Below, in pieces: positions 3,061-34,537 of a stretch of DNA of 64,000 bases. A program made the translations under genes and the position numbers. The stretch is from the IMG/VR virus record IMGVR_UViG_3300021959_000013. One strand, 5' to 3'. The DNA comes from an uncultured virus (IMG/VR IMGVR_UViG_3300021959_000013). Lineage: Duplodnaviria > Heunggongvirae > Uroviricota > Caudoviricetes. A model generated the notes under the pieces. The model had not been told where the DNA came from and searched no databases. It saw only the letters and a list, made by a program, of their open reading frames with translations. Each line of letters begins with the position of its first letter. Position 1 is the stretch's first letter.

Positions 3061-4111
3061 AAAATCACACTTAGAAAAAAATATGTTTTTAGACGAGCCA
3101 GTTGATGTCGCTCGTTATGACCAACTTAAATATCCACAAATAGATAAAATTACGGAAAAACAACTAGGATTCTTTTGGAGACCAGAAGAAGTAGATGTAT
3201 CAAAAGACAAAAAAGACTTTGGAGAATTAACTGACCATGAACAACATATATTCACATCTAATCTCAAAAGGCAAATACTTTTGGACTCTGTACAAGGTAG
3301 GGCCCCGAACCTTGCTTTCTTACCTATATGTTCGTTACCCGAAGTTGAAAACTGGGTCGAAACCTGGTCGTTTTTTGAAACTATACATTCTCGTTCTTAT
3401 ACTCATATTATTAGGAACGTTTATGCAAACCCATCGATAGTATTTGATTCAATGCTTGATGTAAAAGAAATTATGGATTGTGGCTCTGATATCGCAAGAT
3501 ACTATGATGATTTAATAACAGATAATAATTCAGCCACTAATAAAATGCAACATAAGACATCATTATATATGGCAATGCTTTCAGCGAATGCTCTAGAAGG
3601 AATACGTTTTTATGTTTCCTTCGCCTGCAGTTGGGCATTTGCTGAACTTAAAAAGATGGAAGGTAATGCTAAGATTATTAAGTTTATAGCAAGAGATGAA
3701 AATACTCATCTTGCAGCAACTACTGTTATGATTAAGAATCTATTAAAAGAAGATAAAGATTTCGAAAAGATAGCTAAAAAGAATGAAGAACAAGCTATTA
3801 AATTATTTGTAGATGTTATTGAACAAGAAAAAGCATGGGCAAGATACTTATTTAAAGATGGTTCAATGATTGGTTTAAATGAAACAATATTAGAAAATTA
3901 CGTAGAATGGATAGGTTGTAAAAGAATGAGAGCAATAGGTTTACATTGCCCATACACAGTTCCTCAGATGAATCCACTACCTTGGACGGAAAAGTGGATA
4001 TCTGGAGGAAACGTACAAGTCGCTCCACAAGAAACAGAAATAACTTCATATATAACTGGTGGAGTTAAACAAGACGTTGATGATTCAACATTAAAAGGAT
4101 TAAGCTTATGA
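3038..4111 (+). CDS. nrdB: Ribonucleotide reductase class Ia beta subunit
   Basis: FFWRPEEVD, LDSVQGR, ETIHSRSYTH, EGIRFYVSF, RDENTH, APQETEITSY. Confidence 0.98.
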   Translation: MAILHKNKKSHLEKNMFLDEPVDVARYDQLKYPQIDKITEKQLGFFWRPEEVDVSKDKKDFGELTDHEQHIFTSNLKRQILLDSVQGRAPNLAFLPICSLPEVENWVETWSFFETIHSRSYTHIIRNVYANPSIVFDSMLDVKEIMDCGSDIARYYDDLITDNNSATNKMQHKTSLYMAMLSANALEGIRFYVSFACSWAFAELKKMEGNAKIIKFIARDENTHLAATTVMIKNLLKEDKDFEKIAKKNEEQAIKLFVDVIEQEKAWARYLFKDGSMIGLNETILENYVEWIGCKRMRAIGLHCPYTVPQMNPLPWTEKWISGGNVQVAPQETEITSYITGGVKQDVDDSTLKGLSL

Positions 4112-4545
4112 GAGAATTAGGAATGACATTATTAGGATGTTTGGCAATAGGATTATTTTTTGCAATGAAAGTATATCCAAATCTAGAATACTCTGGATAT
4201 GGTGGAGGACATTCATGCACAGGAGAATGCTACGAAGAATATGTAAGAATAAATGGAACGAGTGTAGATATATTAAAAGCAAAACAAGCTCTTGCTGCAA
4301 TGGATGAATTTAGTGCAATTAAACCTTTATGGTCAGGTTGCGCAGCATGCCACGGTCAACAAGGCGAAGGTATGGCAGTGTTTCCAAAACTTGCCGGTCA
4401 GTCAGCTGATTATATTACTGATAGATTAAATACGTATAAAAACAGAGGAGAAGTTGGACCTATGAGTTCGACAATGTGGGCTCAGGCTGGAATGTTATCA
4501 AGTGCAGATATGGAAATGCTAGGTAAATATATAGAAACGCTATGA
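4108..4545 (+). CDS. Membrane-anchored or exported mono-heme c-type cytochrome (c553/c4-like)
   Basis: N-terminal hydrophobic segment, CAACH heme motif, FPKLAGQ, distal Met (GPMSSTM). Confidence 0.85.
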   Translation: MRELGMTLLGCLAIGLFFAMKVYPNLEYSGYGGGHSCTGECYEEYVRINGTSVDILKAKQALAAMDEFSAIKPLWSGCAACHGQQGEGMAVFPKLAGQSADYITDRLNTYKNRGEVGPMSSTMWAQAGMLSSADMEMLGKYIETL

Positions 4546-4969: not shown

Positions 4970-5094
4970 TTTTAGAATGTGAATATTGCTATTCACGAAT
5001 AGTGATTAAACCAGATGAGCCTATTAAAATAAATTTTTGTCCACATTGTGGCGAACCTACAGATGATTCAGAAGAATTAGACTTTAATGAATAA
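4966..5094 (+). CDS. Small zinc-ribbon protein (42 aa)
   Basis: Read manually: MILECEYCYSRIVIKPDEPIKINFCPHCGEPTDDSEELDFNE; two CxxC pairs. Confidence 0.7.
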   Translation: MILECEYCYSRIVIKPDEPIKINFCPHCGEPTDDSEELDFNE

Positions 5095-5524
5095 TTGGAT
5101 ATATCAAGGACTAAAATTTACTCCTGATGAACCTTTTACATTTGAAAGATATGGAAAGGATTGGTATGGATTTGTATATTGTATAACTAATCGAGCTACA
5201 AACAAAAAATATATAGGCAAAAAATTCTTTTGGAAGCCTAAAACATTACCTATAACTAAGAAAAGAAAAAGACGTCAAAGACTTAAAGTCGAATCTGATT
5301 GGCGTACATACTATGGTTCTAATAAACACTTACAAGAAGATGTACTTAAAATGGGAGAAGATTTTTTTTATAGAGAAATAATCTACCTGTGTAAAACTAA
5401 AGGTGAGTGCGCGTATTATGAAGCAAAAGAACAATTTGACAAAGAAGTTTTATTAAGTGAAGATTACTATAATGGTATAATCAATTGCAGAATTGGTGGG
5501 AATGCAGTAAAAAACTTAAAATAA
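5087..5524 (+). CDS. GIY-YIG family endonuclease
   Basis: GFVYCITN...KKYIGKK, YYGS, late conserved E and YN. Confidence 0.8.
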   Translation: MNNWIYQGLKFTPDEPFTFERYGKDWYGFVYCITNRATNKKYIGKKFFWKPKTLPITKKRKRRQRLKVESDWRTYYGSNKHLQEDVLKMGEDFFYREIIYLCKTKGECAYYEAKEQFDKEVLLSEDYYNGIINCRIGGNAVKNLK

Positions 5525-13944: not shown

Positions 13945-14424
13945 ATGGCTATTTGGCATATGAACGACCAAGAGGAAATAAGAATGAATATAGAACAATT
14001 AAAAGAAACATTAAAAGTAGATGAAGGAGTAGTATACGAGATATACAAAGACCACTTAGGTTATCCTACATTTGGAATAGGGCATCTTGTTATAGAAAAA
14101 GACCCTGAATGGGGAGCCGATACTGGTACTCCAGTATCTGAAGAGCGTGTTGATGAATGCTTTGAATCAGATGTACAAACAGTAATAGAAGATTGCATTA
14201 AATTACATGCTGGCTGGGATGGTTATCCTCAAGAGGCTAAACAAATTATAGCAAACATGATGTTTAATATGGGACTTACGCGCTTAAGTAAATTTAATAA
14301 GCACAATGCAGCGCTGCAGTGTGGTGATTGGAAGGAGGCTGCTAAAGAAGGCAGAGATTCAAGATGGTACAAGCAAGTAACAAACAGAGCCGAAAGGCTG
14401 ATGAAAAGGCTCGAGGAGATATAA
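13945..14424 (+). CDS. Phage lysozyme (T4 gpe / GH24-like)
   Basis: DEG...IYKDHLGYPTFGIGHL, MMFNMG, SRWYKQVTNRAERL; alternative start at 13984. Confidence 0.92.
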   Translation: MAIWHMNDQEEIRMNIEQLKETLKVDEGVVYEIYKDHLGYPTFGIGHLVIEKDPEWGADTGTPVSEERVDECFESDVQTVIEDCIKLHAGWDGYPQEAKQIIANMMFNMGLTRLSKFNKHNAALQCGDWKEAAKEGRDSRWYKQVTNRAERLMKRLEEI

Positions 14425-14521: not shown

Positions 14522-14779
14522 ATGTTTAATTGGTTGAAAAAACTTTTTGATAATACTGAACCTGAAGCTACTGGTGTAAGAGCTAGAAATTCTAAAGGTC
14601 ATTTTGTCAAAGACGATGCATCGACACCTAATGTCAATGAAGCATACGTAGATGGTAAAACACCTAAACGTAAGCCAAGAAAAGCAGCTGCTAAGAAAAA
14701 GCCGGTCGCTAAAAAAGCACCAGCTAAAAAAGCACCAGCTAAAGCTAAAGCTAAAAGAAAAACAACTGCTAAAAAATAG
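14522..14779 (+). CDS. Lys/Ala-rich histone-H1-like protein
   Basis: GGAGG RBS; C-terminal KKPVAKKAPAKKAPAKAKAK repeats. Confidence 0.75.
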   Translation: MFNWLKKLFDNTEPEATGVRARNSKGHFVKDDASTPNVNEAYVDGKTPKRKPRKAAAKKKPVAKKAPAKKAPAKAKAKRKTTAKK

Positions 14780-14790
14780 CATTTGTTTCG

Positions 14791-14820
14791 AAAGAGGGGA
14801 GTTTAATACTCCCTTTTTTT
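14791..14820 (+). terminator. Rho-independent terminator
   Basis: GGGAGT-ttaat-ACTCCC stem followed by T7. Confidence 0.85.
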
Positions 14821-14841
14821 GTGTATTGGCGTTGTAAACCT

Positions 14842-14849
14842 TATAAATA
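14842..14849 (+). promoter_or_regulatory. T4-type late promoter heading the csg/FecR/cyclase operon
   Basis: TATAAATA just after the terminator. Confidence 0.75.
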
Positions 14850-14886
14850 ACAGTGTAATAAATTAATTTTTTAGAGGATATATACA

Positions 14887-15138
14887 ATGGCAACAGTCAA
14901 ACTTAAAGGTTCAGAAGGTACTCTGGCTTCAGCAAGTAACGTTAACTTTGCTACACTAGTAAGAATTGTAAATAATAAAACTTCAGTACAAGTCATTACG
15001 CATAAAAATGCAGGTGGCACTACTTTAGGAACATTTACTATGACAGCTGGTTCAGTAGAATTAGTTGAAAAAGTATCAACAGATACTCTTACTGGAGCTG
15101 CAACATCATTAGCAGTTAAAGTAGCTTATACCAAGTAA
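14887..15138 (+). CDS. Small beta-rich hypothetical protein
   Basis: 83 aa with GAGGA RBS. Confidence 0.75.
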   Translation: MATVKLKGSEGTLASASNVNFATLVRIVNNKTSVQVITHKNAGGTTLGTFTMTAGSVELVEKVSTDTLTGAATSLAVKVAYTK

Positions 15139-15140
15139 GT

Positions 15141-15437
15141 ATGGAAGACATTTTCACGCTAATCTCCGATGTCGGCTTACCGATTGCGGGTGCATTAGTG
15201 ATGGGAGCTTTCATATTCATTATTATTAAACAAATAATGGAAGGTGTAGTTGATGATATAAAGACGCTTACTATGTTTTGCTCATCATTAGAAAATAGAG
15301 CAAGAACAATGTGTAATGAAATGGTCAAGATAGATTTACTCGTAAGTAGCGCATTAGAATTAAGACCAGATATAGAACGAATCTCAAGAGCTGAGAATTT
15401 CGTAGAAGATGGCAAGCTTGACGTAAGAAGAGATTAG
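15141..15437 (+). CDS. Single-TM plus coiled-coil membrane protein (YvrJ/holin-like), paralog A
   Basis: ISDVGLPIAGALVMGAFIFIII then an amphipathic coil. Confidence 0.65.
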   Translation: MEDIFTLISDVGLPIAGALVMGAFIFIIIKQIMEGVVDDIKTLTMFCSSLENRARTMCNEMVKIDLLVSSALELRPDIERISRAENFVEDGKLDVRRD

Positions 15438-15438
15438 T

Positions 15439-15726
15439 ATGGAAGATGTAGCAGTTGTAGCAAGTAGCGATCCAACAATAGTGACCTTAATTAATGATTA
15501 TGGGTTTCCTATTGTTATGGTTGTAGGTTTAGGATATTTTGTCTATTTTGTATGGAATTTTATTAGCACAGAAATAGAACCAGCAACTGAAAAAATGCAC
15601 ATGCAATTAATAAGAGTTATTGACCAAATGAGAATGTTGGACCAAGACCTTATAAGACTCCAACAAAAGGTAGATACAGTATTGGAGTATAAAGAAAACG
15701 AAAAGAAAAGAGGTAATGATGAATAA
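15439..15726 (+). CDS. Single-TM plus coiled-coil membrane protein (YvrJ/holin-like), paralog B
   Basis: INDYGFPIVMVVGLGYFVYFVW then a coiled coil. Confidence 0.65.
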   Translation: MEDVAVVASSDPTIVTLINDYGFPIVMVVGLGYFVYFVWNFISTEIEPATEKMHMQLIRVIDQMRMLDQDLIRLQQKVDTVLEYKENEKKRGNDE

Positions 15727-16261
15727 ACATGATAAAAACTTTTTATTTAATATGAGTCCGTTATTAGCAACGGCGTTTGTTATGTTTCTTATGTTAATAG
15801 CATTTGAAACTAGAGCACAAGAAATAACTCATAAATTTAAAAATCCATCATTTAGTGGCCAAGGTACTGGCGCTCATTATTTAACTATTGAGAACCAAGA
15901 ATTCTCTCGTAAAAAAGCAATAGAAGAAGCTTTAGAATCAGCAAGAAAAGCTGCAGAAAGAGCTGAGGATAATACTACCTTAGCAAAATTTATTAGAAAT
16001 TTAGAGAGCAGAATATATGCTCAAATGGCAAAACAATTAGTAGAATCAATGTTTTCAAATGACAATCCAGTAAGGTTTGGTTCATTTGTTTTAGAAGGTT
16101 CAACAGTAACGTACGAAGTGATAACAAATGCCGATGGTACCGAATTTATTCGCATGACTATAATCGACGAAAATGGTACATCAACGATTATAGAAATACC
16201 TATAGGCTCAGGATATTTCGGAGGAGATGTTGATGGTGATGGCACGACTGACGGCGGCTAG
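15716..16261 (+). CDS. csgF: Curli assembly component CsgF-like
   Basis: Signal peptide ending TRA|Q, HKFKNPSFSG, IENQE, FIRNLESRIYAQMAKQL; directly upstream of csgG. Confidence 0.85.
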   Translation: MMNKHDKNFLFNMSPLLATAFVMFLMLIAFETRAQEITHKFKNPSFSGQGTGAHYLTIENQEFSRKKAIEEALESARKAAERAEDNTTLAKFIRNLESRIYAQMAKQLVESMFSNDNPVRFGSFVLEGSTVTYEVITNADGTEFIRMTIIDENGTSTIIEIPIGSGYFGGDVDGDGTTDGG

Positions 16262-17171
16262 TTTAGCATTCTTAATATTACTTAGTGGCTGCGCAATGTC
16301 GCCACGTTTTACTGAACTACCACAAGATTGTAATAAAGATACATGGGGTAAAGATTACGACCATGACTTATGGAACTATGCAAAAGCTTCAGGTAGAACA
16401 TTTGAAAGAGCATTACCATTTATATGTGTTGAAGCTCCAGAAGTTGTTCAATTACCTTCTTTTATAGAACTTTTAGATTTACCACCAGCAAAACAAAAAC
16501 CAGTTGTTGCAGTTTATCAATTTGCAGATAAGTCAGGAGCAAGAAAGCCAAGAGAAAATATAGCTGATTTCTCTACTGCAGTATCACAAGGTGGAGTTGA
16601 ATTAGTTATTGATGCGCTAAAAACAGCTGGTAAAGGTGAATGGTTTAGAGTCGTAGAAAGAAATGGCTTAGACCATTTAGTAAGAGAAAGACAAATTATT
16701 CGATCAGCAAGACAGGATTTTGCTAAGAAAGAAGGAAAAGAAAAGTTTCAAGAATTAGAATCACTACTCTTCGCAGGTATGATAATCGAAGGTGGTGTAA
16801 TAGGGTATGATACCAATATTAAAACTGGTGGGCGAGGAGCTCGTTATTTAGGTATTGGCTATACAAAGCAGTATAGACAAGATGTTGTTACTGTTTCTAT
16901 GAGAGCGATATCAGTTCTCACAGGAGAAGTTTTACTTAATGTACAAACTCGGAAAACTATATTAAGTTATGGTAAAAGTGGAGATATATTTAGATTTATC
17001 GAAATGGGAACTGAACTAGTAGAGTATGAAGATGGAGCGACTAATAATGAGAGCGTGACATACGCAACAAGGTCTGCCATCGAAGCAGCCGTGTTGGAAT
17101 TAATATACCAAGGTCACAGACGTGGCTATTGGGAAATCGAGGGGTATAACGAAAATGAAGAAACTAATTAG
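16239..17171 (+). CDS. csgG: Curli secretion pore lipoprotein CsgG
   Basis: Lipobox LSGC; VAVYQFADKSG, FSTAVSQG, WFRVVERNGL..L.RERQIIR, IIEGGVIGYDTN, TGEVL. Confidence 0.93.
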   Translation: MARLTAASLAFLILLSGCAMSPRFTELPQDCNKDTWGKDYDHDLWNYAKASGRTFERALPFICVEAPEVVQLPSFIELLDLPPAKQKPVVAVYQFADKSGARKPRENIADFSTAVSQGGVELVIDALKTAGKGEWFRVVERNGLDHLVRERQIIRSARQDFAKKEGKEKFQELESLLFAGMIIEGGVIGYDTNIKTGGRGARYLGIGYTKQYRQDVVTVSMRAISVLTGEVLLNVQTRKTILSYGKSGDIFRFIEMGTELVEYEDGATNNESVTYATRSAIEAAVLELIYQGHRRGYWEIEGYNENEETN

Positions 17172-17883
17172 TTTAATTTTATTATTGTCGACAACAACTA
17201 TTTTCGCAGATACCGATGATAACGAAATCATAATAACTCAAACTGGTGATACACTAAAATTATACATTGACCAAGAAGGTTTTGGTAATAAGATTGGAGG
17301 TAATGACTTCTCATCTTCCGGAACTGCAATGTTAGTTACTGGTGCAACACTTGAGTTTGATTTAGATTTCACTGGCAATTCAAATATTTTATTTGGTCCA
17401 GTCACAGCTGATAATTCAACTTATAAGCTAGACTTTACTGGAAGTTCAAATGTAATAGATTGGAGTGTTGGTAGTACAGGAAGTTCAGACGATTCTGATA
17501 TAAACTTTAATGTTACTGGTTCAAGCAATACTTTTGACTTAGACCAGGGTACAGCATTTAGTGCAGAACGTTTAAACGCTGACTTAATTGTCATTGGAAG
17601 CTCAAATGTATTTGACGTCGATTGGGAAAGTGATGATGTAGTTTGGAACTGGGATTTAACTGGTTCAACAAATAACATTAATACTTTACAAAAAGATGGA
17701 TCGAATGAAATGACCGTAGAATTAAATGGTGATAGTGCCGATGTAGACATAAATCAATTATCAGGAACATGCGCAGTTTCAGGTGGTGGTTGTGCTACAC
17801 CGAATGCTATTATTACATTGGATATTACAAGTGATAACTCAGTCATTCAAATTAATCAAAAAGACGCAGCTAACGATAGTTAG
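17155..17883 (+). CDS. Exported curlin-like beta-solenoid protein
   Basis: Signal peptide MKKLISLILLLSTTTIFA; repeated x-hydrophobic-x-TG-S-S-N units; CAVSGGGC near the C-terminus. Confidence 0.7.
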   Translation: MKKLISLILLLSTTTIFADTDDNEIIITQTGDTLKLYIDQEGFGNKIGGNDFSSSGTAMLVTGATLEFDLDFTGNSNILFGPVTADNSTYKLDFTGSSNVIDWSVGSTGSSDDSDINFNVTGSSNTFDLDQGTAFSAERLNADLIVIGSSNVFDVDWESDDVVWNWDLTGSTNNINTLQKDGSNEMTVELNGDSADVDINQLSGTCAVSGGGCATPNAIITLDITSDNSVIQINQKDAANDS

Positions 17884-18982
17884 TAGTTTATTACTAGTGG
17901 GGTCTGTTTATGCAGACTCCATTGGTGATATTGTTGAATCAACAGGTGTAGGTAAAATAGTACGCCAACAAGAAAATATATCAAACCTCAATAATCTTCC
18001 TATACAATTAAATGATGTAGCAGAAACTGCGATGGGTAGTATGCTTATCAAATTCCTAGATAACGCAGAGTTATCTTTAAAAGAACATTCAGAAGTTTTA
18101 ATAGACGAAATCTATTATGACCCTGACCCAAATTTATCAAAAATGTCTATGAAGTTTACTATGGGAACAGCAAGATTTGCTTCAGGTTCTCTTGGTTTAG
18201 TAAACAAAGCAAACATAGATATACAAACACCAACAGCAACAATAGGAATTCGTGGGACAGACTTCACGACTACCATAGATGAGCTCGGACGAAGCCTTAT
18301 AGTCCTATTGCCAGACGCAAACGGTTCCCCGTCGGGTGAAATCAGTGTCACAAATCTGGGAGGAACAGTGTTATTAACTGAATCTTACCAGGCAACTATG
18401 GTAAGTACACTTGACAGCACTCCTACTACTCCGGTAACTATTAATGGTTTAACACCATCTATGATTGATAATATGTTTATTGTTAATCCACCAACTGAAG
18501 TTAAACAAGCAATCGAAGATGCTGCAGCTGATGAACAAGACCAAGATAGTGGAATGCTTGATGTAGACTTTTTAGAGTTTAATGAATTAGAACAAGACGC
18601 ATTAGCAGATAGCGAAAAAGACTTAGAGTTTTCTGAACTTGATATTGACATGTTAGATGTAGACTTCTTAAAAGATTTATTAGACGTAGTTGAAGCTTTG
18701 GAAAAAACTAGAGTATCTTTATCTGATGCTCAAGGCAGTGGTGGAAATCTAAGTGGATTTACTCTTAAAGGAGCAGCAGTTGGATTTAATAAAGATTCGC
18801 AATTTAATGTTTTTGAACAAGATGGTAATTTAGTTTTCTTTCGTAGCGTAAATGGAGTTATAAATATAATAATAGGAGCTGGTGGTAGTGGATTTATAGA
18901 TGTTATCACTAACGATTACGAAGGCGTAATGCAATTTAATGACGGAGATGGAATTGAGATATATATTAATCAGTCTAATTAG
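17804..18982 (+). CDS. FecR-domain periplasmic protein (start uncertain, 17804 or GTG 17831)
   Basis: Signal ending VYA|D; I.FLD...L.L.EHSEV.ID and IQTPTATIGIRGTDF FecR signature; acidic C-terminal region. Confidence 0.85.
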   Translation: MLLLHWILQVITQSFKLIKKTQLTIVSSLLLVGSVYADSIGDIVESTGVGKIVRQQENISNLNNLPIQLNDVAETAMGSMLIKFLDNAELSLKEHSEVLIDEIYYDPDPNLSKMSMKFTMGTARFASGSLGLVNKANIDIQTPTATIGIRGTDFTTTIDELGRSLIVLLPDANGSPSGEISVTNLGGTVLLTESYQATMVSTLDSTPTTPVTINGLTPSMIDNMFIVNPPTEVKQAIEDAAADEQDQDSGMLDVDFLEFNELEQDALADSEKDLEFSELDIDMLDVDFLKDLLDVVEALEKTRVSLSDAQGSGGNLSGFTLKGAAVGFNKDSQFNVFEQDGNLVFFRSVNGVINIIIGAGGSGFIDVITNDYEGVMQFNDGDGIEIYINQSN

Positions 18983-19592
18983 TTTATCTGTTTTAGCAGA
19001 TGATAATCACGTGCACGTAGAACAAGTAACTGATGGAGATAATGCTAGTATAACTGCAACTCAAATAGGTTATGATAATACTATTAACTTTACATTTGGA
19101 CATCAAAATAATACCTTTGACTTTTTACAATCAGGAAATGGTAATTCTATTTCATGGGTTTCATATTGGGGCTCAGGAAAAGCTTGGGGTGGTGATGTAG
19201 ATGGTTATAATAATAATGAATATGTACGACAATATAACGGTGCAACGTATGGTCGACATATATTAGGAAATAATAATGATGTTGATGTATATCAAAGTGG
19301 AACACATACACATAATTTAGATATTCATGCGAGTGATGTTGTACATGATATAAATCAATCAGGAACAGGAAGTCATTATAACCATACATATTTTTATGGA
19401 AGTACTTCTACATCAGAAACAACAATTGTTCAATCAGGTACTGGTTCTCATAATTCACAAATAAGATTACAAGGTAATCAACCAACAACTTTAAATCTTA
19501 CTCAACAAGGTGGAACAAATCAAACTTATAGTTTAACTCAAAATTGCTTTACCGTAGGCGGATGTACAGTTTCAGTAACACAAGGAAACTAA
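18948..19592 (+). CDS. Exported curlin-repeat protein (CsgA/CsgB-like)
   Basis: Signal ending VLA|D; repeats QIGYDN, QSGNGN, QSGTH, QSGTGSH x2, QQGG; C-terminal CFTVGGC. Confidence 0.75.
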   Translation: MELRYILISLISLSVLADDNHVHVEQVTDGDNASITATQIGYDNTINFTFGHQNNTFDFLQSGNGNSISWVSYWGSGKAWGGDVDGYNNNEYVRQYNGATYGRHILGNNNDVDVYQSGTHTHNLDIHASDVVHDINQSGTGSHYNHTYFYGSTSTSETTIVQSGTGSHNSQIRLQGNQPTTLNLTQQGGTNQTYSLTQNCFTVGGCTVSVTQGN

Positions 19593-20011
19593 TGGCATAT
19601 TCAAAAGAAGTAGTAGATAGGTTCGAATCTGTATTAGCAAATCCAGAAAAACATTCAGTTGGAAGATTTGACCCTAATGATAAAACAGTAATCACAGGTA
19701 TGGTTGGTGCTCCAGCGTGTGGTGATGTAATGAAACTAGATTTAAAAATGAAAGGTAATGTAATAGAAGATGTTAAGTTTAAAACATACGGCTGTGGTTC
19801 AGCAATAGCATCATCAACTCTTTTCGTAGAAATGCTAAAAGGTAAAACAATAGAAGAAGCACAAGCTATTAAAGATAAAGATATAGCAAAAGCTTTACAA
19901 TTACCTCCAATCAAATTGCATTGTTCTGTATTAGCTGAAGATGCAATAAGACAAGCAATATCAAACTGGGAACCCGATACGATGATGGGTCATAATAATC
20001 CACCAGAATAA
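19592..20011 (+). CDS. iscU: Fe-S cluster scaffold IscU
   Basis: GAPACGDVM, FKTYGCGSAIASS, LPPIKLHCSVLAEDA. Confidence 0.95.
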   Translation: MAYSKEVVDRFESVLANPEKHSVGRFDPNDKTVITGMVGAPACGDVMKLDLKMKGNVIEDVKFKTYGCGSAIASSTLFVEMLKGKTIEEAQAIKDKDIAKALQLPPIKLHCSVLAEDAIRQAISNWEPDTMMGHNNPPE

Positions 20012-20322
20012 TGGAACTTACAGATGCAGCAATTAAACAACTTATTGAAAAAACTAAAAACGGTAATGATACGATTAGGATTGGTCTTACTGGTGGCGGG
20101 TGTGCTGGCTTTGAATATATATTCGATTATGAATCCAGAGTTAACAGTAATGACCACGTGTTCGACTATGGAAAGTTTACAATCGTCATTGATGATTTAT
20201 CACTGCCCTATTTTGACAATGCAACATTAGATTATATTATAGAAGGCATTAACGAACAATTTAAAATAATTAACCCAGCTGAAAAATCATCCTGTGGATG
20301 TGGCATTTCAGTTCAGTTTTAG
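20011..20322 (+). CDS. iscA: A-type Fe-S carrier (IscA/HesB family)
   Basis: GGGCAGFEY, NP...SSCGCGIS. Confidence 0.92.
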   Translation: MELTDAAIKQLIEKTKNGNDTIRIGLTGGGCAGFEYIFDYESRVNSNDHVFDYGKFTIVIDDLSLPYFDNATLDYIIEGINEQFKIINPAEKSSCGCGISVQF

Positions 20323-20343
20323 TATTACACAGTATAACACTTT

Positions 20344-22179
20344 ATGAAATATTTAACTTCAATATGGACTACTATATTAATTGGTATTACACTTTTAGGA
20401 GTAAGAATATCAGACCCTCAGTTATTAGAACAATTTAGACTTAGTATATTTGACCAATATATACAATCAATACCAGTAGAACAATCAAACGATATAGTGT
20501 TGATTAACATATCCGAGTCTTCACTCGAAGCCTATGGTCAATACCCTTGGCCACGTCAGAATCACGCAGCGGTGATATCTGATTTACGGAACTCGAACGC
20601 TGGCATGATAGGGTTCACTATTATGTTCCCAGAAGATGACCGTTTCGGCGGTGATGATATCTTTGCCTCGTGGATAAAAAATAATGGTGTTATACTATCT
20701 CAAGATGCAGATTCTAATGGTAGGTCATCAAAAGCTCCTTATGTCGGTTATGCCACGTTTGGTTATTCAGGCGATGTATTAGATTTAACATATCGATATG
20801 GTGGATTGATAACTAATATCGATAAACTAGAATCAGAAGCTTGGGGAGCAGGATTATTAAATGGAGCTCCTGAAGTAGATAATCTTACGAGAAGAATACC
20901 ATTAATGTCTCAAGTTAACGGAGATTTATATCCATCATTTGCATTAGAAACTGTAAGAGCAATGCAGGATAAAAAATCATATACAATAAAGTTAAATGAA
21001 GCTGGAATAGAAAGTATAGTATTAAGACCTTTTATAATACCAACTGATGAGAGAGGAAGTATATGGTTAAAATGGAATACACAGTTTGAATCTATTGATT
21101 ACGATGGAAAACCTTTACCAGATTTAAAAGGAAAGACAGCTATTATAGGAGTAACAGCAAAAGGTATTGTACCACAAGTATCTACGCCAGCTGGGTTGTT
21201 ATATCCTCATGAAATACAAGCAAATGCTTTACAGACAATAATATCAGATAAACCTATATCACGGCCTCAATGGACTTATCTTGCTGAACTTGCAATGATT
21301 CTGATTGGTTCTCTTCTGATTGTATTAACGGTATACTATCTTCCGATATGGGTCGGTGCTGTATCCTTCGTTGCCTCTGCAATCGCTGTAAGCTTTGCTT
21401 CTTATTACGCCTGGTACGAATTTTCTATACTCCTCGATTTATCAGCTACTCTAATAATATATATACTTTTACTCACCTCAGCGAGTTTCAATAATTTTTA
21501 TAAACAATTTGTATTAAGACAACAAGTAAAGAAACAATTTGGTACATATGTATCACCAGATTTAGTAAAACAATTACAGAAGGACCCATCACTCTTAAAG
21601 CTTGGTGGTGAAAGAAAAGAAATGACATTTATGTTTATGGATATATGTGGATTTACTCCAATATCAGAACATTATAAAAACAATGACGACCCAGAAGGAT
21701 TAGTAATTCTTATAAATAATTATTTAGATACGATGACAAAGATTGTTCTTAAGAACGGCGGAACAATAGATAAATTCATGGGTGATTGTATCATGGCATT
21801 TTGGAACGCACCATTACCATGTAAAAACCATGCGGATAAAGCTGTTCAAACATCGATTGAAATATGCGAGGCAGCAGATGAACTTATACAACAACTTGAA
21901 GACCAAGGTTTACCTAGGATTGATATTGGTATTGGTATCAATACCGGTACATGCATCGTCGGAAACATGGGAAGCGAATCTAGATTTGACTATTCCGTCA
22001 TTGGAGATGCCGTCAACCTTGGCGCTCGACTCGAGGGACAAACAAGAAATTATGATGGGGTTCGAGTGTTGTTGGGACCAGAAACATATCGAAGCAGTAC
22101 ATCTAGAGCATTCGCTGAAGTCGATAGAATCCTTGTTAAAGGAAAATCCGAGAAAGTTACAATATACACACCAATCTAA
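20344..22179 (+). CDS. CHASE2-sensor class III adenylate cyclase
   Basis: N-terminal TM; CHASE2 (SLEAYGQYPWPR, FPEDDR); three or more TM helices; catalytic FMDICGFT, DKFMGDCIMAFW, DYSVIGDAVNLGARLE. Confidence 0.93.
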   Translation: MKYLTSIWTTILIGITLLGVRISDPQLLEQFRLSIFDQYIQSIPVEQSNDIVLINISESSLEAYGQYPWPRQNHAAVISDLRNSNAGMIGFTIMFPEDDRFGGDDIFASWIKNNGVILSQDADSNGRSSKAPYVGYATFGYSGDVLDLTYRYGGLITNIDKLESEAWGAGLLNGAPEVDNLTRRIPLMSQVNGDLYPSFALETVRAMQDKKSYTIKLNEAGIESIVLRPFIIPTDERGSIWLKWNTQFESIDYDGKPLPDLKGKTAIIGVTAKGIVPQVSTPAGLLYPHEIQANALQTIISDKPISRPQWTYLAELAMILIGSLLIVLTVYYLPIWVGAVSFVASAIAVSFASYYAWYEFSILLDLSATLIIYILLLTSASFNNFYKQFVLRQQVKKQFGTYVSPDLVKQLQKDPSLLKLGGERKEMTFMFMDICGFTPISEHYKNNDDPEGLVILINNYLDTMTKIVLKNGGTIDKFMGDCIMAFWNAPLPCKNHADKAVQTSIEICEAADELIQQLEDQGLPRIDIGIGINTGTCIVGNMGSESRFDYSVIGDAVNLGARLEGQTRNYDGVRVLLGPETYRSSTSRAFAEVDRILVKGKSEKVTIYTPI

Positions 22180-22486
22180 TTTAGATAAAGAAGTATGGTT
22201 TGCTTGGTATCTAGTAAATGTACTAGATATCTATTCAACAGTAAAAGGATTAAAATATTCTTGTATATATGAAGCCAATCCAACTCTACCAAATGTTCCT
22301 CATAGAGACCATTTAATTATTCATAAAGCTTTTTTGCTTTCCACAATATTTAATCCTGATTCCAAATATTGGAGTGATAGTACTATTAATACATTAAGTT
22401 TTACCATAGGTCTTGCTGTCGTTAATAATACAAAAATTATAAATGAAGCAAAAAACAATCCTAATACCTGTCCTAAACGCGGTTAA
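21878..22486 (+). CDS. Exported or membrane protein overprinted on the cyclase 3' end (DUF5658-like C-terminus)
   Basis: GAGG RBS and ATG 21878; signal MNLYNNLKTKVYLGLILVLVSIPVHA; LDIYSTVKGL...EANP. Confidence 0.6.
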   Translation: MNLYNNLKTKVYLGLILVLVSIPVHASSETWEANLDLTIPSLEMPSTLALDSRDKQEIMMGFECCWDQKHIEAVHLEHSLKSIESLLKENPRKLQYTHQSNLDKEVWFAWYLVNVLDIYSTVKGLKYSCIYEANPTLPNVPHRDHLIIHKAFLLSTIFNPDSKYWSDSTINTLSFTIGLAVVNNTKIINEAKNNPNTCPKRG

Positions 22487-22541: not shown

Positions 22542-22570
22542 TTTACATTTGCTCCGAACTATGGTATAAT
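22542..22570 (+). promoter_or_regulatory. Early sigma70-like promoter
   Basis: TTTACA 22542-22547, TATAAT 22565-22570; RBS GATAAGGAGT 22590-22599. Confidence 0.88.
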
Positions 22571-27359: not shown

Positions 27360-27881
27360 ATGCTATCAGTCGGAGAAAAGTTCCCTGCGTTCTCACTGCA
27401 AGGAATCAATGAAAAAAATGAATTTGTGAGAGTTGAAGTAAACGAAAGCTATATGCCACAGAAAAAACAGTGGAGTGTAGTTTATTTTTATCCTAAGGAC
27501 TTTACCTTTATATGTCCAACAGAAATAGCAGGGTTTGACTGTTTAGTCGATGATGCTAATGTTATTGGAATAAGTGGAGATAATGAGTTCTGTAAATTAG
27601 CTTGGAAGCAAGATAATAATATGATTGGTAATATTAATCATACTCTTGCTGCTGATTGTGGATTAGGATTATCAAATACTTTAGGTATTGTTAACGAAGA
27701 AGAAGGTGTTCCATATAGAGCAACGTTTATCTTTGATAAGAATAGAATTATACAACATGTATCTATTAACGCTTTAGATACAGGAAGAAACGCACAAGAG
27801 GTATTAAGAACATTGAAAGCTTTACAAGCAGGTGGTCTTACAGGTTGTGCATGGAACGAAGGTGAAGAGTTTGTCGGATAA
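27360..27881 (+). CDS. ahpC: Peroxiredoxin (AhpC/TSA)
   Basis: FYPKDFTFICPTEI, RATFI, GRN.QEVLR.L.ALQ. Confidence 0.93.
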   Translation: MLSVGEKFPAFSLQGINEKNEFVRVEVNESYMPQKKQWSVVYFYPKDFTFICPTEIAGFDCLVDDANVIGISGDNEFCKLAWKQDNNMIGNINHTLAADCGLGLSNTLGIVNEEEGVPYRATFIFDKNRIIQHVSINALDTGRNAQEVLRTLKALQAGGLTGCAWNEGEEFVG

Positions 27882-34096: not shown

Positions 34097-34537
34097 TTAT
34101 AGTATCTTTATGCCTAAATTCTTTAAAGTTTCTTCTGTCCATACTTGGAACTTCCAACCTTTATATTCAGCAAACTGAGTAGCTGCTTCCCATTTATCTT
34201 GATTCTTACTATATGTAATCATCTCATTAATATATTTTTTAGTCTTACGACTACGTTTTTTAGGTGGAGTTGTTTGATTTTTTGGTTTAATTTCTATTAA
34301 ATAAGTTTTTTTATCTTCCATTTGTATTAAAAGGTCAACAAAATAACGATGTAATTTTTTATCTACTGTACATTTATAGGGTACAACTACCTCTTCTGAA
34401 TTCCACATCTTTACTTTTGGATTATTTTCGCACCATTTAAATGCTTGTCTTTCCCACAAAGAACGGTATACAACTTTACTTGCATCTCCCGCATATTTTT
34501 CTGGTCGTTTTATTGTGTATCTGCCTCTATAACTCAT
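34097..34537 (-). CDS. gp4: Head completion protein gp4 (TnsA-like nuclease fold)
   Basis: PEKYAGD..KVVYRSLWER, WNSEEVVVPY, HRYFVD, EIKP, NQDKWEAA. Confidence 0.93.
   Translation of the reverse strand: MSYRGRYTIKRPEKYAGDASKVVYRSLWERQAFKWCENNPKVKMWNSEEVVVPYKCTVDKKLHRYFVDLLIQMEDKKTYLIEIKPKNQTTPPKKRSRKTKKYINEMITYSKNQDKWEAATQFAEYKGWKFQVWTEETLKNLGIKIL

Follow-up and report, generated by a model that had tools for sequence, protein, structure and literature searches.

Curli secretion genes in phages have been described before. According to the accessible text of PMC9599517 (mSystems 2022), a whole type VIII secretion system (T8SS) module occurs in podo- and myoviral pelagiphages, where it begins with one or two 'histidine kinases' and continues with CsgF, CsgG, a first curli repeat protein, FecR, in many cases a second such repeat protein, and adenylate cyclase. 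The same text reports metatranscriptomic expression of the module and assigns FecR and the cyclase a putative regulatory role. Neither 'CHASE2' nor 'IscU' occurs in the main text of that paper, and the main texts of PMC7029224 (Zaragoza-Solas et al. 2020) and PMC9004378 (Buchholz et al. 2022) treat csgF and csgG only, with no occurrence of 'cyclase' or 'FecR'. We have analyzed a cluster of this kind at positions 14,842 to 22,486 of a 64,000-nucleotide stretch of DNA from an uncultured virus of the Caudoviricetes (IMG/VR record IMGVR_UViG_3300021959_000013); the whole stretch is called the window below. The cluster is already described in print and is not new. What is new here is that a FecR gene beside a CHASE2 gene is a common bacterial pairing with varied envelope partners, and that the phage FecR protein is similar at its N-terminus to both the signaling domain of PupR and the periplasmic plug of a type I-secreted adhesin. 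We suggest, with a probability of about 0.4, that the cluster is a pelagiphage-type curli module joined with a bacterial FecR-CHASE2 envelope-sensor pair, and that the two work together as a relay.

How does this locus compare with the closest known systems? It differs from the pelagiphage T8SS module, as set out in the accessible text of PMC9599517, by having IscU and IscA between the second curlin-like gene (curlin 2) and the cyclase gene, and by an open reading frame (ORF) that overlaps the 3' end of the cyclase gene. Furthermore, the proteins at the position of the 'histidine kinases' of that paper are here 95-98 aa long and have no kinase domain match. With the bacterial curli system (E. 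coli CsgG/CsgF/CsgA/CsgB), the cluster has in common CsgG homology and a CsgF domain, and the beta-solenoid model of its curlin-like protein is nearest to a CsgA structure. Unlike bacterial curli, it has no match to CsgE, CsgC, or CsgD among the region proteins, its curlin repeats score below the Pfam cut-off, and a FecR protein and a CHASE2 cyclase are embedded in it. The FecR/PupR regulators (FecIRA, PupIRB) have the PF04773 periplasmic domain and the PupR C-terminal fold in common with the phage FecR protein, and in those systems the FecR/PupR-type domain contacts an outer-membrane transducer. The phage protein, unlike them, is secreted, with no anti-sigma domain, membrane anchor, sigma factor, or transducer partner found in the window, and it is extended by a long acidic linker and a further C-terminal domain. 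The RIN domain of RTX adhesins (MpIBP, 5ix9; LapA-like) superposes on residues 1-75 of the phage FecR protein in its mature form, but the phage protein has neither Ig-like repeats nor an RTX signal, and it is encoded with a T8SS rather than a type I secretion system.

Two bacterial systems include CHASE2 itself. In the bacterial FecR-CHASE2 pairs described below, the gene of a secreted FecR-domain protein accompanies that of a CHASE2 membrane receptor, as in the phage. The bacterial pairs are usually adjacent, whereas the phage pair is split by curlin 2, and the bacterial envelope partners are OmpA-like, LysM, TPR/barrel, or type I-secreted adhesin-like proteins, never curli (73 loci). In S. 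meliloti, the outer-membrane protein NsrA is required upstream of the CHASE2 cyclases CyaK and CyaD1/D2, an experimentally supported pathway from an outer-membrane protein through a CHASE2 cyclase to cyclic AMP (cAMP), according to the accessible text of PMC7529298. However, NsrA is a beta-barrel receptor and not a secretion pore, and its output goes via Clr, while no such receiver was found for the phage system in the phage records and Pelagibacter-family genomes searched.

Gene content of the cluster

ORFs were identified by Pfam and PHROGs profile matches, and 17 proteins of the region were included in the Pfam scan. The genes from p83 to the ORF overlapping the cyclase gene form one run on the plus strand, abutting or overlapping, with a maximum gap of 21 nt (iscA/cyclase). 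All of the genes named in an earlier description of this DNA made from the letters alone (the sequence-only reading) were found in their places in this unbroken run. They are, with E as the expectation value:

14887..15138, plus strand: p83, an 83-aa protein (phrog_19805, E 4.5e-14)
15141..15437, plus strand: TM1, 98 aa, an N-terminal membrane helix with a helical tail (phrog_18771, E 2.2e-25)
15439..15726, plus strand: TM2, a 95-aa single-pass paralogue of TM1 (phrog_18771, E 3.2e-26)
15716..16261, plus strand: CsgF homologue with a signal peptide (PF10614, E 8.3e-16; phrog_35372, E 3.8e-37)
16227..17171, plus strand: CsgG homologue, a lipoprotein with lipobox LSGC (PF03783, E 2.7e-53)
17155..17883 (from ATG; the ORF opens at GTG 17122), plus strand: curlin-like protein 1 (curlin 1), a predicted secreted beta-solenoid (Curlin_rpt below cut-off, and structure model)
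17831..18982 (listed as 17783-18982), plus strand: FecR-domain protein, secreted (PF04773, E 4.4e-7)
18939..19592, plus strand: curlin-like protein 2 (curlin 2), predicted to be secreted (Curlin_rpt, E 0.033; QxGxxN-like repeats)
19592..20011, plus strand: IscU, a movable insert outside the core (PF01592, E 4.8e-38)
20011..20322, plus strand: IscA, likewise (PF01521, E 9.2e-15)
20344..22179, plus strand: CHASE2 class III adenylate cyclase (PF05226, E 2.7e-40; PF00211, E 9.4e-19)
21878..22486 (opens at 21782), plus strand: ORF overlapping the cyclase 3' end in the +1 frame, with a signal-peptide-like N-terminus and a weak DUF5658 match

FecR and CHASE2 genes in bacteria

The bacterial sample contained one genome per prokaryotic species, and the best 80 of 86 cyclase relatives were retained. 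Loci L083, L084, and L086-L089 were set aside as phage cluster genes on phage-like contigs in bins of metagenome-assembled genomes (MAGs), and L085 as having no upstream sequence, so that 73 loci were analyzed. Matches to a hidden Markov model (HMM) derived from the phage FecR proteins lie within 300 nt of the CHASE2 gene at 31 of these 73 loci. In 24 of them the match precedes the CHASE2 gene on its own strand, in 6 it is upstream in divergent orientation, and in 1 it is downstream. The HMM has no match at all at 31 of the 73.

The Pfam scan was also run on 82 neighbor proteins from 22 of the bacterial loci, and FecR was found at 14 of them. The partners of FecR vary. An OmpA-family protein stands beside a small FecR protein in 5/22 (L105, L107, L115, L116, and L157), a TPR or TPR-plus-beta-barrel protein is encoded upstream of FecR in 4/22 (L121, L125, L139, and L148), and in 2/22 (L092 and L101) the FecR domain is near the N-terminus of a giant protein with Big_9, cadherin-like, and RTX repeats:

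L092 5425-9849, minus strand: giant FecR-adhesin-like protein of 1,475 aa, adjoining the CHASE2 cyclase gene
L101 2856-8663, minus strand: giant FecR-adhesin-like protein of 1,936 aa, adjoining the CHASE2 cyclase gene

At both of these loci, HlyD and ABC type I secretion genes are located on the other side of the cyclase gene. The cyclases of the two loci rank with the nearest bacterial relatives of the phage enzyme (33-34% identity, among the best 80 of 86), and the L092 adhesin-like protein shares 28% identity with the phage FecR protein across 159 residues (E 4e-15). The outputs of the bacterial CHASE2 proteins vary as well, and include a cyclase, a hybrid histidine kinase (L107), and a SpoIIE phosphatase (L116). 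Proteins that bind cyclic nucleotide monophosphates (cNMP) are neighbors at 3/22 loci.

In S. meliloti, the FecR-domain gene SMc02177 and the CHASE2 cyclase gene cyaD1 are presumably neighbors. According to the accessible text of PMC5498481, the cAMP regulator Clr targets SMc02177. In the literature searched, the FecR-CHASE2 pairing was found in print only for Burkholderiales, where a LysM-FecR protein and a CHASE2 histidine kinase form an operon (PMC5192318); neither the FecR-adhesin-CHASE2 arrangement nor an experiment on FecR-CHASE2 coupling was found there.

Conservation of the gene order in phages

Two samples of related loci were taken from phages. From at least 529 cyclase relatives in IMG/VR the best 80 were kept, and 42 of these have at least 5.6 kb upstream of the cyclase gene. 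All 42 are colinear, with TM1, TM2, CsgF, CsgG, curlin 1, FecR, and curlin 2. The second sample was drawn by CsgG, which avoids the ascertainment bias of sampling by the cyclase; the best 80 of 151 relatives gave 77 new loci. FecR is downstream of CsgG in 63/63 of those with at least 3 kb of room, and the cyclase gene is downstream in 49 of the 54 with at least 6.5 kb. Of the 64 loci that have room upstream, 63 carry TM1 or TM2. Thus, the synteny survey that the sequence-only reading had proposed bears out the linkage of FecR and cyclase genes to csgFG. The gene order is also the same, without the Isc genes, in HTVC008M (NC_020484), a Pelagibacter phage whose cyclase is 43% identical to that of the window, and in Melnitz (MZ577097), a Methylophilales phage, with 36% identity.

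The sequence-only reading had further counted IscU and IscA as members of the unit. These genes do not belong to it, since their position varies: among the 42 loci they are between curlin 2 and the cyclase gene in 12, before the TM1/TM2 pair in 8, and absent in 22. Judged from this distribution, IscU/IscA is a movable insert, unrelated to the core.

Matches labeled 'Acinetobacter phage MD-2021a' were discarded as irrelevant, because they come from a bacterial isc operon region with a small cyclase that has no CHASE2 domain. This locus (L164, CAKLQF020000009.1 35411-49950) carries iscR, iscS, iscU, iscA, hscB, hscA, fdx, mfd, and the small cyclase gene, and looks like bacterial chromosome rather than phage.

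The FecR-domain protein

The true start of the FecR gene is probably the GTG at 17831 rather than 17783, because the relatives carry stop codons in the upstream extension and a conserved Met aligns at 17831. The N-terminus is then a signal peptide ending VYA/DS, with a beta domain directly after it, and the mature form has 355 residues. The FecR domain is the sole Pfam match, and neither a cytoplasmic anti-sigma domain nor a membrane anchor was found in the protein. Furthermore, there is no extracytoplasmic function (ECF) sigma factor or TonB-dependent transducer among the 17 region proteins and the 47 other proteins of the window.

A model of the protein was obtained from a 39-row alignment, with a mean predicted local distance difference test (pLDDT) score of 69.9. 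It shows an N-terminal beta domain from residue 1 to about 180, with block means of 73-88 and one low block at 91-100; an acidic linker of about 90 residues, mostly with pLDDT < 50, as for disordered segments; and a small C-terminal beta domain at about 280-350, with block means of 64-83. Residues 31-193 resemble the cell-surface signaling domain of PupR (6ovk_R), with Z = 15.4 and a root-mean-square deviation (rmsd) of 2.6 over 136 aligned residues. Mature residues 1-75 resemble RIN (5ix9), with Z = 10.2, rmsd 1.9, 71/76 residues aligned, and 20% identity. According to the accessible text of PMC5550230, the structure 5ix9 shows the RIN domain of a type I-secreted adhesin, the ice-binding protein MpIBP of Marinomonas; RIN stays periplasmic and is thought to plug the TolC pore, keeping the adhesin attached. 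By analogy, we infer that the phage FecR protein could be threaded through a pore.

The C-terminal domain was considered as a possible curlin-like domain, and this was rejected, as a profile comparison of FecR with the curlin 1 family gave no similarity (probability 3.5%). An Atlas search with the C-terminal 95 residues gave best scores of 0.87 and no named family. The complex of the periplasmic CHASE2 domain (22-312, 55-row alignment) and mature FecR (39-row alignment) was also predicted, with scores of 0.00, 0.47, and 0.00 against a mark of 0.32, in runs without controls.

The cyclase and the overlapping reading frame

The cyclase has one membrane helix, a periplasmic CHASE2 domain (about 22-312), three membrane helices, and a cytoplasmic catalytic domain, where the PF05226 match covers residues 15-327 and the hydrophobic segments were read from the sequence. 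It aligns with P. aeruginosa CyaB (3r5g) with E 1.6e-35, and all six positions that we take to be the catalytic residues of class III cyclases match. These are both metal Asp residues, the Lys in DKFMGD, a Thr, and the Asn/Arg pair. Across an alignment of 55 sequences from phages and bacteria, Asp-433, Asp-481, and Arg-562 are invariant, and Lys-477, Thr-534, and Asn-558 are at least 90% conserved. The metal Asp pair, the DKFMGD Lys, and the Asn/Arg pair had been picked out in the sequence-only reading, and the CyaB alignment confirms them. Thus, the enzyme carries the full catalytic set, and adenylate cyclase activity is predicted. When the cyclases of the window, HTVC008M, and Melnitz are aligned, the Melnitz enzyme (L002 8826-10877) differs from the other two in having Ser instead of Asn in the Asn/Arg pair; it also has a C-terminal extension of about 70 residues.

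The ORF at 21878-22486 overlaps the final 302 nt of the cyclase gene (21878-22179). An ATG about 300 nt inside the cyclase gene and a hydrophobic, signal-peptide-like N-terminus are kept in 49 loci, and there is no in-frame start codon in this ORF downstream of the cyclase stop. In the cyclase gene, synonymous variability is 0.396 within the overlap and 0.443 in the adjacent part (p 0.067), a slight constraint that is not decisive. An exported protein had been placed at the end of the run; the ORF and its signal-peptide-like start are there, but the start is found only inside the cyclase gene.

The pore, the small membrane proteins, and the curlin-like proteins

E. coli CsgG (PDB 3x2r) aligns with residues 76-310 (235 residues) of the phage CsgG with E 1.9e-47. 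In the region of the constriction loop, with the E. coli constriction-forming residues as we take them to be, the Phe is retained and the Tyr and Asn positions are Arg and Asp. CsgF scores 58.8 bits in Pfam, against a cut-off of 25.8; phmmer gave no sequence match to it in the PDB. The Pfam scan of the 17 region proteins gave no CsgE, CsgC, or CsgD. Of the proteins by which type VIII secretion is recognized, the CsgG-family lipoprotein pore and CsgF are thus present, and CsgE of the gammaproteobacterial type is not. CsgE is not universal among curli systems. It is also absent from the pelagiphage module in the accessible text of PMC9599517.

The small proteins upstream, one or two per module, are labeled 'histidine kinases' in the accessible text of PMC9599517; TM1 and TM2 are equated with them by position only. 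TM1, TM2, and their counterparts in HTVC008M and Melnitz (92-115 aa) have no HisKA or HATPase_c match in Pfam at E up to 10, and TM1/TM2 match no holin family in the same search. The nearest named Atlas cluster is YvrJ, at 0.87, which is a lead only. At eight loci (L086, L087, L218, L228, L229, L238, L239, and L241), the TM1/TM2 pair is located downstream of the cyclase gene on the opposite strand, linked to the cluster yet away from the lysozyme side.

Curlin 1 scores 18.3 bits with Curlin_rpt and curlin 2 scores 14.6 bits (E 0.033), both below the Pfam cut-off of 20.7. QxGxxN-like repeats are visible in the sequence of curlin 2, a variable protein with 25-100% identity to its relatives. The model of curlin 1 (pLDDT 85.2, predicted template modeling score 0.82) is all-beta, with regular strand-turn-strand rungs. 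In a comparison with 48,161 chains, Pontibacter CsgA (8c50_A) ranks first, with Z = 17.4, rmsd 8.7 Å, 190 residues aligned, and 18% identity, a match only about 2 Z above generic beta-helices. Foldseek gave no match to the model in the PDB at E up to 0.001. The two proteins are read as curlin-like secreted beta-solenoids and as candidate subunits of a surface fibre.

Transcription signals

The signals in and around the cluster, and the gene upstream, are as follows:

13945..14424, plus strand: T4 e-type lysozyme gene, neighbor of the cluster (PF00959, E 1.8e-10)
14789..14821, plus strand: terminator-like hairpin with a U run, after an 85-aa gene (-18.3 kcal/mol, z -4.55, 0/200 shuffles as stable)
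14842..14849, plus strand: TATAAATA, a T4-type late-promoter motif, 45 nt ahead of the first gene
18859..18866, plus strand: an internal TATAAATA inside the FecR gene, 80 nt ahead of curlin 2
22542..22570, plus strand: sigma-70-like promoter match before the next gene (TTTACA, 17 nt, TATAAT with TG; 11/12 positions)

The hairpin at 14789-14821 was missing from the output of the consensus scan for signals. Together with the TATAAATA at 14842, it supports the terminator and late promoter that had been read from the sequence at the head of the run. One more TATAAATA within the run is at 21711. Related loci totaling 1.14 Mb contain TATAAATA 269 times on the strand of the cluster and 24 times on the opposite strand. 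Its presence 8-150 nt upstream of each gene, where 0.034 are expected per interval of that size, was counted in the related loci. It is upstream of p83 in 17/37, of TM1 in 23/46, and of curlin 2 in 25/45, as compared with CsgF in 0/9, CsgG in 0/30, curlin 1 in 0/51, FecR in 1/45, the Isc genes in 0/23 and 0/24, and the cyclase in 0/75. The two conserved sites, at the first genes and at curlin 2, make the earlier description of the cluster as one late operon too simple. On the motif evidence, the cluster is best read as late, with two conserved start points.

An early promoter had been proposed at 22542. The match there is good, at 11 of 12 positions, but the sigma-70 scan gave 44 matches in total against a shuffle mean of 51.3, that is, no excess, and there is an equally good match at 20213, inside iscA. 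Therefore, 22542 and 20213 are only consensus matches.

Contigs from RNA libraries cover the region in 4 runs from 3 studies, and one contig of 5,479 nt spans csgF to the cyclase gene. These contigs are blind to strand, ends, and level; they show presence in RNA libraries and not a single transcript, and DNA carry-over is possible. One RNA-library variant omits 22164-22467. In run X3, a contig that matches the window at 98.6% identity carries two insertions, one of 30 nt at the IscU/IscA junction (after 20004) and one of a single nucleotide after 19590. Loose ends near 18450-18460, 15727, and 22163-22183 recur in several of the RNA runs. The insertions and loose ends suggest strain-level mosaic boundaries within the cluster.

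Proposed mechanism and alternatives

What might this combination of genes do? In the proposed relay, the CsgG/CsgF pore would be installed late in infection, and the curlin-like subunits would be exported through it to form surface fibres. The FecR protein would be held in the periplasm by its N-terminal plug-like or PupR-like beta domain, under or in the pore, or tied to the fibre via the acidic linker and the small C-terminal domain. It would then report the state of the surface structure to the periplasmic CHASE2 domain, which would set the synthesis of cAMP in the cytoplasm. FecR and CHASE2 would be a pre-existing bacterial two-gene sensor that has been coupled to different envelope structures, and the phage would have coupled it to curli. 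Such a trans-envelope relay is plausible, as a refinement drawn from gene order, fold, and analogy. We favor it because the gene order is conserved in the phages, because FecR and CHASE2 are paired in bacteria together with an envelope partner, because the fold is PupR-like and plug-like, and because there is a precedent in S. meliloti.

Several observations weigh against this reading. The contacts of the FecR protein with CsgG, the curlins, or CHASE2 are proposed by analogy only. FecR and cyclase genes are never adjacent in the phages; curlin 2 is always between them, and in the window, where the two genes are 1.36 kb apart, IscU and IscA are as well. In 5/54 loci (L182, L184, L187, L188, and L189), FecR and both curlins are kept without the cyclase. 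These five are one T4-like phage lineage, with CsgG about 54% identical, TM1, TM2, CsgF, and CsgG kept, and no other sensor gene downstream. At L184, curlin 2 is the last gene of the cluster, and replication genes come next, on the other strand. Since FecR is kept without the cyclase in this lineage, it has a cyclase-independent role there, within the curli part. The counts themselves are counts of loci and not of independent lineages, because many of the loci are near-identical or from shared contigs. The identification of the curlin-like proteins as fibre subunits is weakened by the sub-cut-off Curlin_rpt matches and by the large rmsd of the CsgA superposition. In the bacterial sample, CsgF, CsgG, curlin, and TM1/TM2 are found at 0/73 CHASE2 loci, and thus this sample offers no bacterial precedent for a coupling to curli.

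Nor is there a visible receiver for the cAMP. Domains that bind cNMP were found in 0/5 large related phage records (54-71% complete). Among 41 genomes from the family to which a MAG titled Candidatus Pelagibacter belongs, 2 have such domains and 1 has a class III cyclase. This search covered cNMP-binding domains only, one kind of cAMP receptor, and the Pelagibacter family need not include the host of this phage. The suggestion of the sequence-only reading that the system could tune host cAMP regulons is therefore left without a visible receiver. As a separate observation, FecR and curlin 2 are set apart at L184 by an additional gene of 170 aa.

The cyclase-less lineage would be expected if two separate functions merely travel together, namely a curli module with an accessory or anchoring FecR protein, for aggregation or defense against superinfection, and an independent auxiliary cyclase whose CHASE2 domain senses something else. 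The constant presence of FecR with CsgG, when the cyclase is missing in five loci, fits this account, as do the Isc genes inserted between curlin 2 and the cyclase gene in 12 of 42 loci and the second conserved late promoter at curlin 2. According to the accessible text of PMC9599517, the cyclase and the second curlin are also less frequent in podophage versions of the module. However, FecR is next to CHASE2 again and again in bacteria, and this recurrence makes a chance co-occurrence in one phage cluster unlikely. The cyclase is also present and colinear in 49/54 and 42/42 loci, and the order is kept in phages as distant as HTVC008M and Melnitz. We therefore consider two independent functions a possible but somewhat doubtful explanation. 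Another proposal concerns lysis. A pinholin-like or secretin-like role was proposed in the Melnitz paper (accessible text of PMC9004378), and one can envision a device for lysis timing in which CsgG/CsgF as a gated outer-membrane pore, holin-like TM1/TM2, and lysozyme control the release of progeny. The lysozyme gene is indeed directly upstream in 41/42 related loci, so that its proximity, noted in the sequence-only reading, is a conserved feature; there are late-promoter motifs, and TM1/TM2 are of about 95 aa with one N-terminal membrane helix, besides their lead to YvrJ. Yet the Melnitz proposal presumed that there are no fibre subunits, and two curlin-like secreted proteins are present here, likewise in the accessible text of PMC9599517. 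CsgG is an outer-membrane pore, unable to depolarize the inner membrane, TM1/TM2 have no holin match, and in eight loci they are downstream on the other strand, away from lysozyme. A role in lysis timing thus seems quite improbable.

Regulation or uptake of iron is the least probable of these explanations, and we give it very little weight. In this case, FecR would sense an iron signal as in FecIRA, CsgG would import iron compounds, and IscU/IscA would use the iron. A FecR domain is present, the Isc genes are in or beside the cluster in 20/42 loci, and an iron link is discussed in the accessible text of PMC9599517. However, the FecR protein consists of a signal peptide and a FecR domain with no cytoplasmic anti-sigma domain, and the sigma factor and the TonB-dependent transducer are missing from both the cluster and the rest of the window. 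In bacteria, FecR by CHASE2 is accompanied by OmpA-like, adhesin-like, and TPR/barrel proteins and not by iron transport genes, and 22/42 phage loci have no Isc genes near the cluster.

Returning to the relay, its value beyond the published cluster is the link to a widespread, unstudied bacterial FecR-CHASE2 pairing. The signal for CHASE2 has been an open question since the domain was named. Taken together, the phage cluster, the adhesin-linked loci, and NsrA suggest, by analogy, that CHASE2 may read the state of the outer membrane or a surface structure via a FecR-like partner. A broader idea, which we regard as unlikely but worth stating, is that FecR proteins are general periplasmic co-sensors of CHASE2, with the plug-like domain under an outer-membrane pore carrying a polymer (adhesin or curli), and that they report pulling, loss, or engagement of the polymer. 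The phage system would then be a sensor of contact or superinfection that acts through cAMP in a host with no cAMP signaling of its own. Phages of this kind abound in the ocean, and the hosts known for their cultured relatives (SAR11 and OM43) do not have these genes. Infection would therefore add both a new surface structure and a new second messenger.

Other features of the window

The window belongs to a T4-like myophage from the sea and has a G+C content of about 33%. Elsewhere it encodes ribonucleotide reductase, gp32, gp59, a late-transcription coactivator, baseplate genes, and large fibre-like ORFs. The gene at 14522-14779, after lysozyme and before the terminator, encodes an 85-aa Lys/Ala-rich protein, with Lys/Ala/Pro repeats in its C-terminal half and a composition like that of histone H1. 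Neither this protein nor p83 has a meaningful Pfam match at E up to 10. The window also encodes a cytochrome c-like protein (4108-4542), an AhpC/TSA peroxiredoxin (27360-27878), a TnsA-like endonuclease (34100-34537, minus strand), and a SegE-type GIY-YIG endonuclease (5087-5521).

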